Shown here: positions 1 to 19,616 of the stretch, one piece after another
Position numbering within the stretch: the stretch's first letter is position 1
Layout: each line of letters begins with the position of its first letter
DNA from: Elusimicrobiales bacterium
Lineage (GTDB): Bacteria > Elusimicrobiota > Elusimicrobia > Elusimicrobiales > UBA9959
Length of the DNA stretch: 19,616 nucleotides
Reading direction: 5' to 3'
NCBI GenBank assembly: GCA_049972095.1
Contig: JBMFKQ010000002.1
Coordinates: 69,021 to 88,636 of the forward strand
Program-made: the position numbers

Positions 1-3000
1 GTATCTGGCACAACTGGAAGTGGCGATCTTGTTTTTAGCACACAGCCAAGCTTTACCACGGGGATAACAGTGTCTGGGTGGGGGAATTTTTCTGGTGGCA
101 TAACAGCATCAAGCGGGACATTTACAACTGCAGTTGGAACACCGCGTATGAATCTAACAAGCAATGTTTACATATCATCAACCACATCTGCAAATTATGG
201 CGGTGTTTATGTCTCAACACATATATATCTTGTATCAGGAGCAAGATATTATGGAAATGGAAGTCAAATTACAAACATTGATGCCTCAAAAATAACAACA
301 GGAACACTTCCTCCTTCAAGAGGTGGAACTGGTATTTCTGGTGCAGGTGGGACAGCAAATAGGGTTCTTATTACAACCGATGGATCTTCCTGGACAGCAG
401 GCCAAATAAATCCAGCAACAATGATATCAGCAGGAGCGCTTCCAATAAATGTTATTGCATCATCAATAGCAGTCAATGCGGTTTATACTGGGGCGATATC
501 GGATGGTGCGGTTACGGATGCGAAAGTATCAGACAATATTTCTATCAATAATGGAAATTTATATTCAATATCAGGTTCTGGCAACGTCGGCATCGGGACG
601 ACAAATCCACAATATAAATTGGATGTGTACGGGGATCTTCGCGTTACCGGTATTATACGGGATTTCTGCATACCAGTTGCCTATCCCAACGGAACATGTC
701 CTTCGACCCACCCAAGAATGTCAGGATTTTTCCCTAATGATTCAGGTTATATTGACTTCTATGCAATGGACGCAGCGAGTTCATGGACCAGATACAGGTT
801 TTCTCTATTTTCGGGTGGAACTATAATATGCTGTAAGATATGGTACTAAAGGAGGTTTTTTGAAAGATATTGTTTTAAGATATCCGGTGAGTTATGATAT
901 TGAGGTGATAAGATATGTCTCATATATGATGACATCTGATTTCTGGGTTTTTGTAAGTAAATCCGGAAATTTCTTTCAAATAAGGCTTACTCCAAAGAAA
1001 GATGGTGTATACGATCTAAGAAAAATTAAAAAAAGATTTGAAGATGAGTTAAAATACGAGATATTTAGAAAAAAACTCTTAGATAAAAATGCTGATTTCA
1101 GGTTTCACATAATAAAAAAGGCGATTACCTATACCCCACCCTCTCAAGAGGAACTTCCAGATGCTTTAACACCAGAGGAGCAAAAAGAGCTTGAAAGGCT
1201 TATAAAAGAGGCTGAGGAAGAGATAAAAAAAGAACTTCAAAAGGAGAAGGATGATGATATTAGAAAAACATGGGAAGAAAAATACGGCAAAAAAGTTAGA
1301 TAACACTCTCTTTGTAAGATGGAAAAAGATATCCAAAAACAAAGTTATAATGACAAATGATTTTGGAGGCTATATTATCCTTAAAGAAAAAGACCTCAAT
1401 GATTATATATCTAACAAAATAACTAAAAAACACAGACTTTACAAAGAGCTTTCAGAAAAGGGGTTTATAAAAACATTTATGGATTTTGACTCACTTTTCA
1501 GAAAGTGGAAAGACTTAAACTCATATCTTTTTACAGGCCCTTCACTTCATATAATTGTAATAACTCTTAGGTGCAATCAGAGATGCATTTACTGTCAAAG
1601 TCAAGCAGTTGGAATGAAAGATACAGACACTGATATGAATATTAACACAGCAAAAAAGGCTGTTGATACTGCTTTTTTATCACCTTCGAAAAACCTGATA
1701 ATAGAGTTTCAGGGTGGAGAGCCGCTTGTAAACTGGGATGTAGTTAAGAAAACAATAGAATATGCAAGGGAAAAAGAAAAAAAATCAGATAAGAGACTTT
1801 CACTATCGGTTGTCACAAATTTCTCGCTAATGGATGAAAAAAAGGCAGAGTTTCTTTTGAGAAATGAGATTTCACTCTGCACATCTCTTGATGGACCTAA
1901 GAGACTCCACGAGTCAAACAGGATATATTCAGGCTCAAGCTCTTATGAGCTTGCGGTTAAATGGATAAAATACTTTAACAATAAATATGAAAAACAGCAT
2001 GGACTTTCTTATAGGATATTCAAGCCATCAGCCCTTTTGACTGTTTCAAAAAAATCACTTGACTATCCTAAAGAGATAGTTGATGAATATGTTAAAAATG
2101 GCCTTGAAACCATTTTTATAAGACCACTTTCCCCAATAGGATTTGCCAAAAAACATTGGAATATTATAGGATATACTCCTGATGAGTTTGTAGATTTCTA
2201 CAAAAAAGCTCTTGAATACATAATAAAACTGAATATAAAAGGTAAAATACTTTACGAGAAAACAGCTCAGATGCTTTTAAACAAAATAATAAACTCAAAA
2301 GACCATGGATTTACTGATCTTAGATGTCCATGTGGTGCTGCAACAGGACAGATAGCATACAACTTCAACGGTGATGTCTACACCTGCGATGAGGGAAGGA
2401 TGGTGGGATGGGAAGGGGATGAATCGTTTAAAATAGGAAATCTTTTTAGTGATTCATACTCAAAACTTATAAACTCCCCAATAACAAGGATATGTATGCA
2501 TACATCAAACCTTGAAAATCAACCAAGATGCTCAAGATGTCCTTATATGCCGTGGTGTGGGGTTTGTCCTGTTGTTAACTACGAATCACAGTCTAACTTT
2601 TGGGGTGATAACTTTACATCATCAAGATGTGCTATAATGATGGGTATATTTGATACACTCTTTGAGTTTATGGAAAACAAAAGTTATTCCAAGGTTCTTA
2701 ACGACTGGGTAAAAATCTAAGGTGTGAGGTAAAGATGAAGTATGAAATAGATCTTGACATATACTCGGCTGATGCTATAAAAATAGCAAAAAACATTATA
2801 GACAAAGAAGATCTCATAAAGATAAATATAAAAGATGAAAAGGCTGAGGCAATATTCGACGAAAAAAATATAACCTTATTTAATAATCTTATGAACGAAG
2901 CATTATCACAGCAATGCAGGATAGATACATCAAAGAAAAACTCAAAAGTAGCTGAGCTTTTGACAACTCTTGTTATACTTTCTGCCCTTGGAAAAGGAGG

Positions 3001-18000: not shown

Positions 18001-19616
18001 TTTTCTTTCTTTTTCGCTATTCTTATATCAGCATATGAGGCAAGTTTGTAAATTATTTTAGGTGGGAAAAATACTGAACTAAGATCAAAAACTCCCTTAT
18101 TCCTGTTTTTAAGGATATAGCTGTCACAAGTTTTCAAAATCCTTCCCATTTCTAAAAGCCTTTTTAACTCAAGTCCAATCGTTTTTTCTGGTGATTTTCC
18201 AAATTTTTCTTTAAAATCTTTTAGGACCAGCTGACCTGTGTGCAAAAATTTTACTACCGCATAGTTGATTATCTCATCTTTTTTAGAAAGAAAAACAATC
18301 TTTTCAACCGGCAATAGTCCTTTTTCTATCAATGAAATATAACGACCAACATCAGAAACATTTTGATACCTCTGCTTACCAGCACAGTATGTTATTGAAC
18401 TCGCTCCAAGTCCAAGGGTAGAGTATCCTTTTTCTTCCTGCTGATCATAAGTATAGGGCCACTCTCCACCTTTTCCTTTAAAAATCCAATGACCACAACG
18501 CATAATATAACCCTTTTTTTCTATAAGCCAATCTATCCCCTTTTTGCGCCAAGCCCTTGCTTTGTCCATTGATTCACCATATAAGGAAGCGCTATGAAAA
18601 TCATTATAACTACTAAATTTCCTTGGTTGCCAGTCAAAAATATAAACACGCTGCAGTTCAAATTGGGAAAGAATCTCTATATCTCTCATAAAAATCTCTT
18701 CTGTTTGTCCGGGAAGTCCTACAATCAAATCAGCCTCAATATTTTCTATACCAGCTTTTATAGCATTATTTAAAGCATTAATTGCCTGTTGTTGGGTTTG
18801 CGGTCTACCAAGGCCCCTCATTAGTTCTTCATTGAAACTCTGGATTCCTATTGCAAGATAATTAACACCAAGCTCCTTTAGTTTAACAGCCTTCTGATAG
18901 GTTAGAGTATGTGGAGATGCTTCCATTGCTATTTTTGTTTGAGATGTAATAGTAAAGTTTTCTTTGAAAACTTTCATAAGAATCTCTAATTGTTTTTCTG
19001 AAAGTATAGTTGGAGTACCACCACCAAAAAAAAGAGCTCTTATAGGAAAATTCTTAAAAGCATCTTTAAAATAGATAGTCTCTTTAACTAAAGCCTTTAG
19101 GTAGTATTCTATTTCCAGATGACTATCTGGTATTTTTCTATAAAAGCCACAAAACTTACATATATATGAACAAAATGGAATATGAACATAAATAACTGGA
19201 TTTATGTTTCTGTTTTTGCTATTTGATTCCCTCCATAGTTTTACCACTTTTTCCGGCTTTATACCCATTACTCTATCCCATGAAAAAAATGGAGGATAGT
19301 TCGGTGGCATTTCCGGCAGCAAATTTTCATCACTTATAGCAAAAATCTTTTCCAAAAAGCCTTCATCAAAAATATCACAAGACAAAGTTTTATTCCTTTT
19401 CATCTATTCCACATAATTCCAACATTAACTTTTTATTCTCTAAAGTTTTTATTATTTGGCATTTTATATTTTATGTTATCATTCTACAATTTTTATAACC
19501 GCGAGTCAAATATCTGTAAGATCTCCATACATTTTGGAATTTTCTGGTGTTAATTCTTTGTTTTCTATTTTCTCTTTAATTAAATATTCCATCGGTGTCA
19601 TCTTTATGCTTTTATG

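Follow-up and report, generated by a model that had tools for sequence, protein, structure and literature searches.

A probable and much enlarged HXS-type pathway that matures a single HxsA4-family peptide in an Elusimicrobiales bacterium

Some radical SAM enzymes of the SPASM type modify the same ribosomal peptide many times, at short motifs that recur periodically along it; examples are PapB and the enzymes that form three-residue cyclophanes, FxsB, GrrM and YhhB among them. The poly-cyclopropylglycine system also belongs to these repeat-directed peptide maturases (PMC9062424). The HXS systems of Escherichia coli and other Pseudomonadota are arranged HxsD-HxsB-HxsC-HxsA (Li et al., Nat Commun 2026, PMC13128918). 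Cleavage of HxsA in E. coli depends on all three of HxsB, HxsC and HxsD, and HxsC binds HxsD. N-terminal processing of HxsA is non-canonical, and the protease responsible is unknown. The mature protein carries a +8 Da change mapped to one repeat, and in contrast to the repeat-directed maturases, His-x-Ser chemistry is known in that text only as this mass shift. In the same survey, 99.7% of HXS systems occurred in Pseudomonadota, and 99.8% were four-gene systems (PMC13128918).

We analysed a stretch of 19,616 nucleotides (‘the window’) from an Elusimicrobiales bacterium, and we think it probable that its gene cluster is a lineage-specific, vertically inherited and greatly expanded pathway of the HXS type that matures one HxsA4-family ribosomal peptide. 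Like HXS systems, the window encodes HxsB, HxsD-like proteins and an orthologue of HxsC, together with a His-x-Ser protein whose N-terminal part includes an export-type segment; an HxsB gene adjoins an HxsC gene in both (here g00164-g00165). The window differs in holding 12 radical SAM genes rather than two (13 when contig C19 is counted), two HxsD-like genes and, in addition, an A24-like peptidase and a Cys-rich membrane protein. A further difference is that the cluster lies on the chromosome and is passed on vertically within a class of genomes labelled Elusimicrobia, rather than in Pseudomonadota. An initial annotation had reported the peptide, two HxsB proteins above cut-off and 12 radical SAM genes, and all were found where it had placed them.

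Fourteen co-directional genes, overlapping or spaced by 65 bp or less, form a single operon-like string (860-14119, + strand): HxsD-like, HxsB, a second HxsD-like, a membrane protein with 14 Cys, the HxS peptide and nine further genes. Three more radical SAM genes (14991-19403) are convergent to this string across an AT-rich gap of about 25% G+C (14120..14990), which contained no open reading frame longer than 56 aa, no Rfam family and, by tblastn with the neighbour genes of relative G019, no remnant. Pfam Radical_SAM matched 12 of the 18 window proteins scanned, and the CxxxCxxC motif is intact in all 12: three HxsB-type, five HxsC-type, three PapB-like and one HemN-like. Paralogues within a class are 25-40% identical, and in the HxsB-type and HxsC-type trees each forms its own orthogroup across genera. 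As far as their sequences can tell, these paralogues are ancient and retained, which bears out the earlier view of the locus as an elaboration of HXS and not a four-gene island. Its description as chromosomal agrees with the lipopolysaccharide genes upstream (Lpt, KdsA/B, LpxK and GT9), which are accompanied by a gene for a Por_Secre_tail protein. The left boundary needs correction: the frame at 70-849, taken as the cluster start, belongs to a long surface-type protein that starts upstream at L001:17517; only its tail (1..849, + strand) lies in the window, the open frame crossing the window start. The tail matched no Pfam or NCBIfam family, and nothing was found that ties the protein to the cluster; we treat it as the left neighbour.

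The candidate substrate, g00160 (4061..4396, + strand; 111 aa), scores 51.6 bits against the HxsA4 model (NF038313; cut-off 55), a cut-off that 10 of 10 orthologous peptides pass at 56.6-86.5 bits, covering almost the whole profile. Its Lys-rich N-terminus is followed by an invariant SEEGK, a short hydrophobic segment with an AxA-like end, HxNYF, 15 in-phase H-x-x triplets (11 HxS, three HGA and one HAR) and a terminal RGGWC. We take SEEGK not to be a classical class III signal-peptide site, a point against our reading. Orthologue alignments show a conserved leader, a signal-like segment and an (SHG)n run of variable length. The repeats of g00160 are nearly free of Lys and Arg and no peptidoglycan-binding domain is present, whereas E. 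coli HxsA has about 214 aa, five basic repeats and a peptidoglycan-binding domain (PMC13128918); the DNA-binding model of E. coli, where the repeats are basic, may thus not transfer. No other open reading frame in the 58 contigs of the genome has four or more consecutive H-x-[S/A] triplets, and this solitary HxS peptide counts for the reading we prefer. The number of triplets in relatives ranges from 10 to 23, so the enzymes cannot each address one fixed repeat, and this counts against it. Nor is the peptide the new class that had been proposed, since the family is already in NCBIfam as HxsA4. In MAGs of Elusimicrobiales and Omnitrophota, NCBI already labels proteins of this kind HxsA4, and we found no paper using the names HxsA4 or HxsC4.

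The likeness to HxsD, formerly a judgement by eye, is supported by profiles. HxsD-like protein 1 (g00156; 860..1303, + strand; 147 aa) matches TIGR03976 at E 2.2e-8 and 34.4 bits, under the cut-off of 50, as do 10 of 10 orthologues at 26.8-44.9 bits, all likewise under it; its acidic C-terminal extension is conserved in the alignment. HxsD-like protein 2 (g00158; 2735..3013, + strand; 92 aa) was given no family by HMM searches and is assigned through hhalign of the two orthologue alignments (probability 95.4%, E 1.7e-8, 80 columns). Between them lies HxsB paralogue 1 (g00157; 1251..2720, + strand; 489 aa), a radical SAM/SPASM maturase scoring 509 bits against TIGR03978, above the cut-off of 370. 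HxsB paralogue 2 (g00164; 7551..8951, + strand; 466 aa) also exceeds it, at 439 bits. A third, HxsB-type paralogue (g00162; 5463..6653, + strand; 396 aa) scores 248 bits over profile positions 74-466 only; the ~70 residues with which the family model begins are missing from it, and its G019 orthologue is full length (457 aa). All three form their own orthogroups in the HxsB-type tree, with support of 99/100 for that of g00164. Downstream of HxsD-like 2 stands g00159 (3010..4071, + strand; 353 aa), a protein anchored in the membrane, with 14 Cys and a charged tail at its C-terminus, for which HMM searches gave no family and Atlas just one weak Elusimicrobiota cluster. A protein of 338-390 aa with 12-14 Cys occupies the same place, between HxsD-like 2 and HxsA, in eight of 10 relatives.

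The initial annotation called no HxsC. This holds at curated cut-offs; it does not hold for homology, since five HxsC-type paralogues are present and one, g00165, groups with canonical HxsC. g00165 (8941..9837, + strand; 298 aa) scores 168 bits against TIGR03977 (cut-off 268), the sole family matched at E ≤ 1e-30 by 11 of 11 orthologues, and its clade (SH-aLRT 99) takes in HxsC from the canonical systems of G192 and G168. Judged from sequence, it is an HxsC orthologue, though under the curated cut-off. The other four are g00161 (4462..5481, + strand; 339 aa; best family TIGR03977, 108 bits, under 268; SH-aLRT 99), g00163 (6637..7554, + strand; 305 aa; best family NF038332, HxsC4, 146 bits against a cut-off of 500; SH-aLRT 100), g00167 (10996..11919, + strand; 307 aa; NF038332, 148 bits, under 500; SH-aLRT 100, one member of the orthogroup coming from family f7) and g00169 (12947..14119, + strand; 390 aa with a C-terminal extension of ~100 aa; NF038332 102 bits and TIGR03977 88 bits, both under cut-off; SH-aLRT 99). 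HxsC4 is the best family for three window enzymes. In 61 genomes of the family no gene reaches E 1e-60 against this model, with its cut-off of 500 bits, so the window enzymes are not HxsC4 proper.

The remaining radical SAM enzymes have other relatives. PapB-like paralogues g00168 (11865..12950, + strand; 361 aa), g00170 (14991..16076, − strand; 361 aa) and g00171 (16063..17145, − strand; 360 aa) match NF047865 (PapB) best, at 140, 147 and 117 bits, under the cut-off of 340; g00168 is 30-31% identical to the other two, which are 34% identical to each other. The repeat-directed PapB, FxsB, GrrM and YhhB families are the next-best NCBIfam matches of the HxsB-type and PapB-like enzymes, far under those cut-offs. 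The last gene, g00172 (17142..19403, − strand; 753 aa), encodes a fusion of a HemN/HutW-like radical SAM enzyme (TIGR04107, 177 bits, under 400) with an HxsC-like pseudo-domain in which CxxxCxxC is missing and the C-terminal CxxCxxxxxC kept. By hhalign, its C-terminal half matches the HxsC-type alignment at 99.0% (E 9.5e-18, 233 columns), and the clusters of G047 and G060 contain orthologues that are fused too, of 783 and 720 aa.

Immediately after the HxsC orthologue comes g00166 (9794..10999, + strand; 401 aa), a polytopic membrane protein that has PF01478-type similarity and carries an additional part at its C-terminus, and which looks like a divergent A24 (prepilin/preflagellin peptidase-like) protein and not a synthase. 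Like the A24 peptidases (PilD and FlaK; PF01478, with PF06819 in archaea), it is polytopic with two invariant Asp inside the Pfam-domain region, the second in a G-D-x-K context, and with a P-F-A/G motif near the C-terminus. D39, W103, W108, D112, K114 and G385 are invariant across 73 sequences of its family. PF01478 is matched at E ≤ 0.1 by 42 of these 73 relatives, and over the whole domain by 12 of 20, one of them above cut-off. Atlas gave feature scores of 0.93-0.95 and TM 0.67-0.72 to A24 clusters, the nearest of which carry PF01478 and Arc_PepC. For the g00166 protein itself the assignment is weak: PF01478 at E 0.025 and 15 bits (cut-off 26.5), only 8% by hhalign against a bacterial (PilD-type) peptidase alignment, and no match in a PDB sequence search. 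It differs from A24 peptidases, too, in having additional helices and a conserved, soluble segment within its length of about 400 aa, in falling under the Pfam cut-off, and in being embedded among radical SAM genes; g00160 is without a classical prepilin site, and an ordinary prepilin peptidase is encoded separately on contig C22 of the same genome. Because g00166 looks like an A24 peptidase, the earlier suggestion that a membrane-bound product is made there is unlikely. A peptidase-like gene thus stands beside HxsC in the window, where for E. coli HxsA the protease is given as unknown (PMC13128918).

The system is lineage-wide, as had been claimed: among 61 genomes of the family, HxsB above cut-off occurs in 55, HxsA in 54 and g00166 in 51. 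In six genomes (G008, G026, G042, G048, G051 and G052) none of the three was found; completeness is 90-96% for four of these. G001, G013, G020 and G035 have HxsA and HxsB and no g00166 match, apart from a partial profile match in G020. The system is not limited to one family as first thought; it is inherited vertically in three families that belong to one class, and the g00166 family occurs in the same three, in relatives labelled Elusimicrobia. No g00166 relative was found in 88 genomes of sister family f2, three of f4 or two of f29, and the only HxsB matches in f4 and f29 were G298 and G168. Both modules lie on the same contig in 10 of 10 relatives from seven other genera. HxsC-type genes are present in the available flanks of 78 of 80 loci with a g00166 relative and HxsB-type genes in those of 65, and in many genomes the HxsD-HxsB-HxsD trio directly adjoins the HxsC-peptidase-HxsC core. 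HxsA is in the available flanks of just 19 of the 80 (11 of 37 with at least 20 kb), and is sometimes at least 13 kb away (e.g. G036). This scatter of HxsA, like the four genomes with HxsA and HxsB in which g00166 gave no full match, counts against the reading we prefer. The one relative said to keep a core of the array without an HxS peptide, G029, does have HxsA, at C40:45104-45352 between its HxsB genes.

The neighbours of the array could point to a non-peptide substrate. Contig C19 carries two TP_methylase-like and two U32 genes with homologues inside relatives’ clusters, and in eight of eight mapped relatives an NifH-NifD fusion and an NifK-like gene lie within the cluster or directly against it. 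Meheust et al. 2020 (bioRxiv 10.1101/765248) described up to 13 radical SAM genes beside ‘Group VI’ nitrogenase paralogues of Elusimicrobia, and proposed tetrapyrrole reduction; the words ‘peptide’ and ‘HXS’ are absent from the portion of that text available, and a 2026 review still lists the function as unknown (PMC13474568). The phylum is the same and the neighbourhood similarly rich in radical SAM genes. In two genomes named there, L111 and L113, HxsC-type genes flank the relatives of g00166, and L113 carries HxsD-HxsB-HxsA besides. The array might, accordingly, build a non-peptide cofactor together with these neighbouring genes, perhaps one of the tetrapyrrole type, a role that the HemN/HutW-like enzyme would suit, with HxsD-HxsB-HxsA a mere neighbour. 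We consider this improbable. Eight of the 12 radical SAM enzymes are HxsB- or HxsC-type, the HemN-like one is itself fused with an HxsC-like domain, the HxsC-peptidase-HxsC core is adjoined by HxsD-HxsB-HxsD, and the peptide is missing jointly with HxsB and g00166. ALAD and porphobilinogen deaminase were not found in the source genome, which is 96.5% complete, and neither was an NifH-like gene, which occurs in only 20 of the 61 family genomes, far fewer than HxsB. Where they do occur, in a third of the family genomes, the nitrogenase-like genes in or against the cluster link the system to the unexplained Group VI paralogues.

A less radical division, which we rate as rather unlikely, would have two pathways interleaved: a core HXS pathway (HxsD, HxsB, the HxsC orthologue, the peptidase and the peptide), and the PapB-like, HemN-like and some HxsC-type genes acting, with the U32, TP_methylase and nitrogenase-like genes, on another target. 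Genera do differ in content outside the conserved core, where g00161, g00162 and genes of the HemN-like and PapB-like types are present in some and missing from others; a sub-module of U32, HxsC-type, NifH-D and NifK-like genes recurs in relatives and is movable; and g00170-g00172 stand on the opposite strand past an 870-bp gap. Against such a division, the extra HxsC-type genes are paralogues of a peptide-linked enzyme and are mixed gene by gene with the core, the HemN-like enzyme is joined to an HxsC-like domain, and the PapB-like gene that opens C19 has an orthologue directly behind HxsA in G022, G028, G027, G019 and G010.

Canonical HXS is an anti-phage system (PMC13128918), and canonical-type loci are sporadic in the phylum (HxsA-HxsB-HxsC in G192 and G298, HxsB-HxsC in the G168 stretch read), so the array might also be viewed as a defence island, a stack of independent HXS-type systems in which each HxsB/HxsC pair is separate. 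This we regard as very improbable: the genome has a single HxS peptide, which has neither a peptidoglycan-binding domain nor basic repeats, the orthogroups are stable rather than patchy across genera, the flanks hold housekeeping genes, and PADLOC on 17 proteins gave no defence family beyond a generic viperin-type radical SAM likeness.

The case that the peptide and the array form one unit is now better grounded than in the initial annotation: it draws on the single gene string, the adjoining HxsD-HxsB-HxsD and HxsC-peptidase-HxsC groups, the joint absence in six genomes and the HemN-HxsC-like fusion. That many enzymes tailor the peptide is an inference. Homology to HXS is supported by the two HxsB proteins above cut-off, and by the HxsC, HxsD and HxsA4 models as best or only matches; that the window’s HxsC, HxsD and HxsA proteins are all under curated cut-offs counts against this reading. 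In the pathway we favour, the precursor would be made with its Lys-rich SEEGK leader, a signal-like segment with an AxA-type site, HxNYF, variable SHG-type repeats and the RGGWC tail. The HxsB-type radical SAM/SPASM and HxsC-type enzymes would modify it in the cytoplasm, the two HxsD-like proteins probably serving the latter as adaptors, as in E. coli, and the PapB-like and HemN-like enzymes would make additional changes. The A24-like membrane peptidase, whose gene stands between those for the HxsC orthologue and the following HxsC-type enzyme, may then cut the N-terminal leader at the cytoplasmic face, after which the product would be exported to the periplasm or envelope, where the Cys-rich membrane-anchored protein may handle it. 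The product might be a His-rich polymer of the envelope that serves in defence, as E. coli HxsA does, in metal binding or in redox chemistry. We lean toward a housekeeping role in the envelope or with metals, rather than mobile phage defence.

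We think it rather likely that the window carries an expanded HXS-type pathway for the maturation and export of an HxsA4 peptide, its leader being cut by an A24-like peptidase (HXS being the four-gene HxsA/B/C/D anti-phage system). Its open reading frames were listed, translated and scanned against NCBIfam and Pfam, and the gene content described in the initial annotation was confirmed as a whole. The plus strand opens with the tail of a long surface-type protein whose start lies upstream (1–849; first given as 70–849). On the same strand there follow HxsD-like 1 (g00156, 860–1303), HxsB-1 (g00157, 1251–2720), HxsD-like 2 (g00158, 2735–3013), a membrane-anchored protein with 14 cysteines (g00159, 3010–4071) and the HxS peptide (g00160, 4061–4396). 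Then comes the array, also on the plus strand: g00161 (HxsC-type, 4462–5481), g00162 (HxsB-type, N-terminally short, 5463–6653), g00163 (HxsC-type, 6637–7554), g00164 (HxsB-2, 7551–8951), g00165 (HxsC-type, 8941–9837), the polytopic membrane protein g00166 (9794–10999), g00167 (HxsC-type, 10996–11919), g00168 (PapB-like, 11865–12950) and g00169 (HxsC-type, 12947–14119). The 14 plus-strand genes overlap or are spaced by no more than 65 bp, and because of this packing the peptide gene and the nine array genes form one operon-like string. On the minus strand lie the PapB-like g00170 (14991–16076) and g00171 (16063–17145), and the 753-aa, HemN/HutW-like g00172 (17142–19403).

The two convergent gene strings are separated by an AT-rich gap of 870 bp (14120–14990, ~25% G+C), which contains no ORF longer than 56 aa and no convincing small ORF. 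Rfam models at gathering thresholds have no match in the window, this gap included, and tblastn with the neighbouring genes of a relative, G019, reveals no remnant there. In G019, a TP_methylase-like gene stands directly after the g00169 orthologue, in place of the gap. Scans for promoters and for terminators did no better than on shuffled sequences (100 versus 98.2, and 7 versus 8.4, respectively). Genes for lipopolysaccharide export and synthesis lie upstream of the cluster; the setting is not that of a mobile island. The surface-type protein directly upstream (L001:17517 to window 849, ~1100 aa) belongs to no family; it is preceded by a small protein (L001:16996–17508) that carries Por_Secre_tail, a sorting domain of type IX secretion.

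The HxS peptide noticed initially is borne out: of the 15 in-phase H-x-x triplets in g00160, 11 are HxS, and no second such HxS-repeat ORF occurs in the source genome. It scores 51.6 bits against the HxsA4 model (cut-off 55), and 10 of 10 orthologues exceed the cut-off (56.6–86.5 bits) over nearly the whole profile. Such proteins from MAGs of Elusimicrobiales and Omnitrophota are already named HxsA4 by NCBI; our literature search found no paper that uses the name. An alignment of eleven orthologues begins with a Lys-rich N-terminus, an invariant SEEGK and then D-x-D-x-V-K, and continues with a short hydrophobic stretch (..ALGI.G.) ending in an AxA-like site, followed by a conserved H-x-N-Y/F-F. 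The peptides end in R-G-G-W-C, replaced by GSY or GAW in one of the eleven and in some sequences of other families. By eye, this layout reads as a putative leader, a signal-like segment and a repeat core; a search for leader-only proteins gave two matches, neither informative. SHG-type triplets number from 10 to 23 among relatives, and this variability suggests iterative chemistry rather than one enzyme per repeat. We envisage that every triplet would be modified iteratively and that further, site-specific steps would act on HxNYF and RGGWC, which are conserved. Longer HxsA variants, in which the SHG repeat recurs 20–30 times or more and the tail is Cys-rich (C-R-G-G-W-C-x-P-R-C), occur in family f7 (G339, G334 and G306; L026–L031). 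They adjoin ORFs of 1257–1467 aa whose best match is HxsC-type; in these G+C-rich genomes the ORF bounds are provisional.

Canonical HXS differs in several respects. It comprises four genes in 99.8% of cases, according to the E. coli HXS paper (PMC13128918), whereas the window has 17, in the order D-B-D-x-A followed by the array. Unlike the canonical HxsA, g00160 has no peptidoglycan-binding Pfam domain, and it has only one Lys/Arg in its repeat run; a canonical form with such an HxsA does occur in the phylum, in G192. The same paper presents HXS as a barrier to phage entry built on a radical-SAM-matured protein; the near absence of Lys/Arg from the repeats here argues against simple transfer of the E. 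coli DNA-binding model. That the cluster is instead a stack of separate defence systems seems to us very improbable: PADLOC v2, which lacks an HXS model, returned only a generic viperin-type radical SAM likeness for the 17 proteins.

All 12 radical SAM enzymes of the window contain CxxxCxxC and match Pfam PF04055 over its cut-off. They fall into four deep classes—HxsB-type, HxsC-type, PapB-like and HemN-like—with identities of 29–40% within the HxsB-type, 25–34% within the HxsC-type and 30–34% within the PapB-like class. The two HxsB assignments made at first hold, g00157 and g00164 scoring 509 and 439 bits against TIGR03978 (cut-off 370); g00162, at 248 bits, falls under it. The absence of HxsC, also reported initially, stands at curated cut-offs, since the top HxsC score in the window, that of g00165, is 168 bits against TIGR03977 (cut-off 267.9), but not beyond them. 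HxsC is the best family of g00165 and, in 11 of 11 of its orthologues, the only one to reach E≤1e-30, and in the tree its clade holds the HxsC of the canonical systems of G192 and G168 (SH-aLRT 99). HxsC4 proper is found in 0 of 61 genomes of the family, UBA9959. In the trees, each HxsB- and HxsC-type paralogue of the window belongs to an orthogroup of its own that spans genera (three HxsB-type groups; five HxsC-type groups, each with SH-aLRT ≥99), and for this reason we regard the duplications as old and retained.

The HxsD likeness of g00156 and g00158, at first judged by eye, now has numerical backing. Against TIGR03976 (cut-off 50), g00156 reaches 34.4 bits (E 2.2e-8) and its orthologues 26.8–44.9 bits in 10 of 10, all below the cut-off, and profile-to-profile comparison (hhalign) gives 95.4% for g00158 against g00156. 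These HxsD-like proteins may pair with the HxsC-type enzymes. The C-terminal third of HxsD-like 1 (860–1303) is a conserved acidic extension, G-L-T-P-E-x-E-K-E-L ... T-W-E-E-K-Y-G, lying outside the 90-position HxsD model. Neither the Atlas nor Pfam at E≤10 returned anything useful for the Cys-rich g00159. The C-terminal half of g00172 (17142–17900, minus strand) matches the HxsC-type family over 233 columns (hhalign 99.0%, E 9.5e-18); it has no CxxxCxxC but keeps the C-terminal CxxCxxxxxC. This HemN–HxsC-like fusion is retained in G047 and G060, and the physical fusion ties the HemN-like enzyme to the HXS pathway. Against NCBIfam, the C-terminal parts of g00172 and g00166 match no family.

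We interpret g00166 as a divergent member of the A24 peptidase family. At E≤0.001, a full HMMER search gives 219 relatives. Across 73 aligned sequences D39, W103, W108, D112, K114 and G385 are invariant, D112 within W-P-A-G-D-x-K. Both D39 and D112 lie inside the stretch matched by PF01478, and we take them to be the two conserved catalytic aspartates of the membrane-proximal A24 motifs. Pfam Peptidase_A24 is matched at E≤0.1 by 42 of the 73 relatives. A closer look at 20 shows a match over all 104 positions of the domain (residues ~12–140) in 12, and one exceeds the PF01478 cut-off, the same one also matching Arc_PepC. g00166 itself scores 15.1 bits (E 0.025; profile positions 2–102 of 104), below the gathering score of 26.5, and is the second-best A24 match in its genome, after an ordinary prepilin peptidase on contig C22. 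By features, it neighbours A24 clusters in the ESM Atlas at 0.93–0.95, and its Atlas model has a TM of 0.67–0.72 to A24 clusters, archaeal forms with A24 plus Arc_PepC included. Alignment to a 25-sequence PilD-type profile gave 8% (hhalign), confined to the C-terminal P-F-A/G motif, and a sequence-profile search of the PDB with g00166 found no peptidase. The idea that g00166 makes a membrane product, as a synthase or a transporter, was rejected, since its conserved residues and its relatives indicate a peptidase. In E. coli, N-terminal cleavage of HxsA is non-canonical and requires HxsB, HxsC and HxsD; the study (PMC13128918) names no protease for it, and of the chemistry it gives a +8 Da change. 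Since the putative peptidase adjoins HxsC, it is a natural candidate for leader cleavage, and export might follow.

Within the family (61 genomes, 13 genera), HxsB exceeds its cut-off in 55 genomes, mostly in 2–4 copies, HxsA occurs in 54 and g00166 in 51. Neither HxsB nor HxsA nor g00166 was found in G008, G026, G042, G048, G051 or G052 (60, 96, 68, 92, 90 and 96% complete, respectively). G032 has HxsB and g00166 and no HxsA match. G001, G013, G020 and G035 have HxsA and HxsB and no g00166 match with a single protein as query; with the profile, G020 gives a partial one. Some genomes have a second or third HxsA and additional HxsB away from the main cluster (G010:C20:170139–170459 and 143750–145129; G058, G059, G007 and G017). 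Ten relatives, drawn from seven other genera, were used to map synteny. In all ten, the HxsD–HxsB–HxsD–(Cys-rich)–HxsA module shares a contig with an array module ordered HxsC-type, HxsB-2, HxsC, putative peptidase, HxsC-type, PapB-like, HxsC-type; the Cys-rich protein is present between HxsD-like 2 and HxsA in eight. It had been noted that G029 keeps a core of the array without an HxS peptide in the 36 kb read; this caveat no longer stands, an HxsA being found between the HxsB genes of G029. Two interleaved pathways, with a core HXS pathway acting on the peptide and several of the extra enzymes on something else, are an unlikely account of the cluster.

Across all species genomes, g00166 has 195 relatives. 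The best 80 of these are all labelled Elusimicrobia, Elusimicrobiales or ‘bacterium’, and the flanks covered around them include HxsC-type genes in 78 cases, HxsB-type in 65 and HxsA in 19. HxsC–putative peptidase–HxsC is the constant core among these 80 loci, and HxsD–HxsB–HxsD immediately adjoins it in many of them. A sample of 301 genomes of the phylum was searched for HxsB and with a g00166 profile. HxsB and g00166, in that order, occur in 21/21 and 19/21 genomes of family f1, 21/27 and 23/27 of f7, 3/4 and 3/4 of f5, 1/88 and 0/88 of f2 (same order), and 0/89 and 0/89 of f14. The peptide type is the same in families f7 and f5, where the multi-enzyme sets differ. Sporadic HxsB genes outside f1, f7 and f5 belong to the canonical type: HxsA–HxsB–HxsC occurs in G192 (C8, L036; HxsA of 288 aa with basic H-R-S repeats) and G298 (C1, L035), both from other families of the phylum, and G168 has HxsB–HxsC in the stretch read. 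The g00166 profile finds no relative in the families of G192, G298 and G168. Because canonical-type loci occur in G192 and G298, the phylum has HXS of both kinds.

The source genome (1.44 Mb, 58 contigs, 96.5% complete) is interrupted within this region. Its contig C2 stops 213 bp past g00172 (window 19404–19616), and the last 45 bp overlap the start of C49, the sole overlapping contig, whose 547 bp encode a transposase or integrase-like fragment; the break probably lies at a repeat. At the start of another contig, C19, is a thirteenth radical SAM gene, and after it come two U32, two TP_methylase-like and two unknown genes (C19:1–6457, L122), next to which stand NusB and LigA. Orthologues of this radical SAM gene directly follow HxsA in G022, G028, G027, G019 and G010, and homologues of the U32, unknown and first TP_methylase-like genes lie inside the clusters of relatives. 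An overlap between the end of C2 and C19 was not found; C19:1–6457 is probably the remainder of the cluster.

The relatives' clusters also hold nitrogenase-like genes. In G019, a NifD/K-like gene and then a NifH–NifD fusion come after the TP_methylase-like gene (L003:3326–7028). NifH-like genes occur in 20 of the 61 family genomes, sharing a contig with HXS markers in 11 and lying on other contigs in nine; the source genome has no PF00142 match at E≤1e-20 on any contig. In 8 of 8 genomes mapped (G019, G024, G009, G029, G011, G056, G041 and G012), the HXS cluster contains, or directly abuts, a NifH–NifD fusion of ~820–880 aa and a NifK-like gene, frequently as U32, HxsC-type, NifH–D and NifK-like. 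Radical-SAM-rich neighbourhoods of such ‘Group VI’ nitrogenase paralogues in Elusimicrobia were described by Meheust et al. (bioRxiv 10.1101/765248), whose proposal was tetrapyrrole chemistry; neither ‘peptide’ nor ‘HXS’ occurs as a word in their text. Two loci from genomes they named, L111 and L113, have g00166 relatives with HxsC-type neighbours, and L113 also has HxsD–HxsB–HxsA. A 2026 review still lists the function of Group VI as unknown (PMC13474568). The source genome has no match for ALAD or porphobilinogen deaminase, and a pathway to a non-peptide cofactor, for which the tetrapyrrole proposal speaks, appears to us quite improbable.

What was observed to tie these genes together is homology, packing, retained orthogroups, and phyletic and syntenic linkage; the action of all of the enzymes on the peptide, the cleavage site, the export, the HxsD–HxsC pairing and the biological role are inferred. 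We offer, as a tentative and rather doubtful extension, that the radical SAM suite beside the Group VI paralogues is such a pathway. A His-Gly-Ser repeat peptide would be rebuilt by a dozen radical SAM enzymes, aided by the U32-type and methylase-like enzymes and, where present, by the ATP-driven nitrogenase-like reductase. The product could be a periplasmic poly-imidazole peptide with heavy cross-linking, or else a metal/redox cofactor derived from the peptide. If so, a nitrogenase-like enzyme would be at work in a ribosomal-peptide pathway for the first time, and HxS products would gain a new class, modified far more heavily.

Neither HXS nor the HxsA4 model is new in itself. Our literature search found nothing on the 13-enzyme super-cluster and its orthogroups, the A24-like peptidase, the HemN–HxsC-like fusion, class-wide vertical inheritance or the embedded nitrogenase-like genes; supplements may hold overlapping neighbourhood figures. 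In the cluster we see a second form of HXS that occurs naturally, is enlarged and is inherited vertically, and whose substrate, a short and pure SHG repeat, is much simpler. Given that simplicity, the separable orthogroups and a peptidase that may be dedicated to the pathway, the cluster is well suited to finding out how HxsB and HxsC act on His-x-Ser. For the Group VI paralogues, the position of the relatives' nitrogenase-like genes inside a peptide-maturation cluster provides a concrete, testable substrate hypothesis. The cluster takes up ~19 kb of a 1.44-Mb genome, and more if C19 is counted, a cost that argues for an important function in the envelope.
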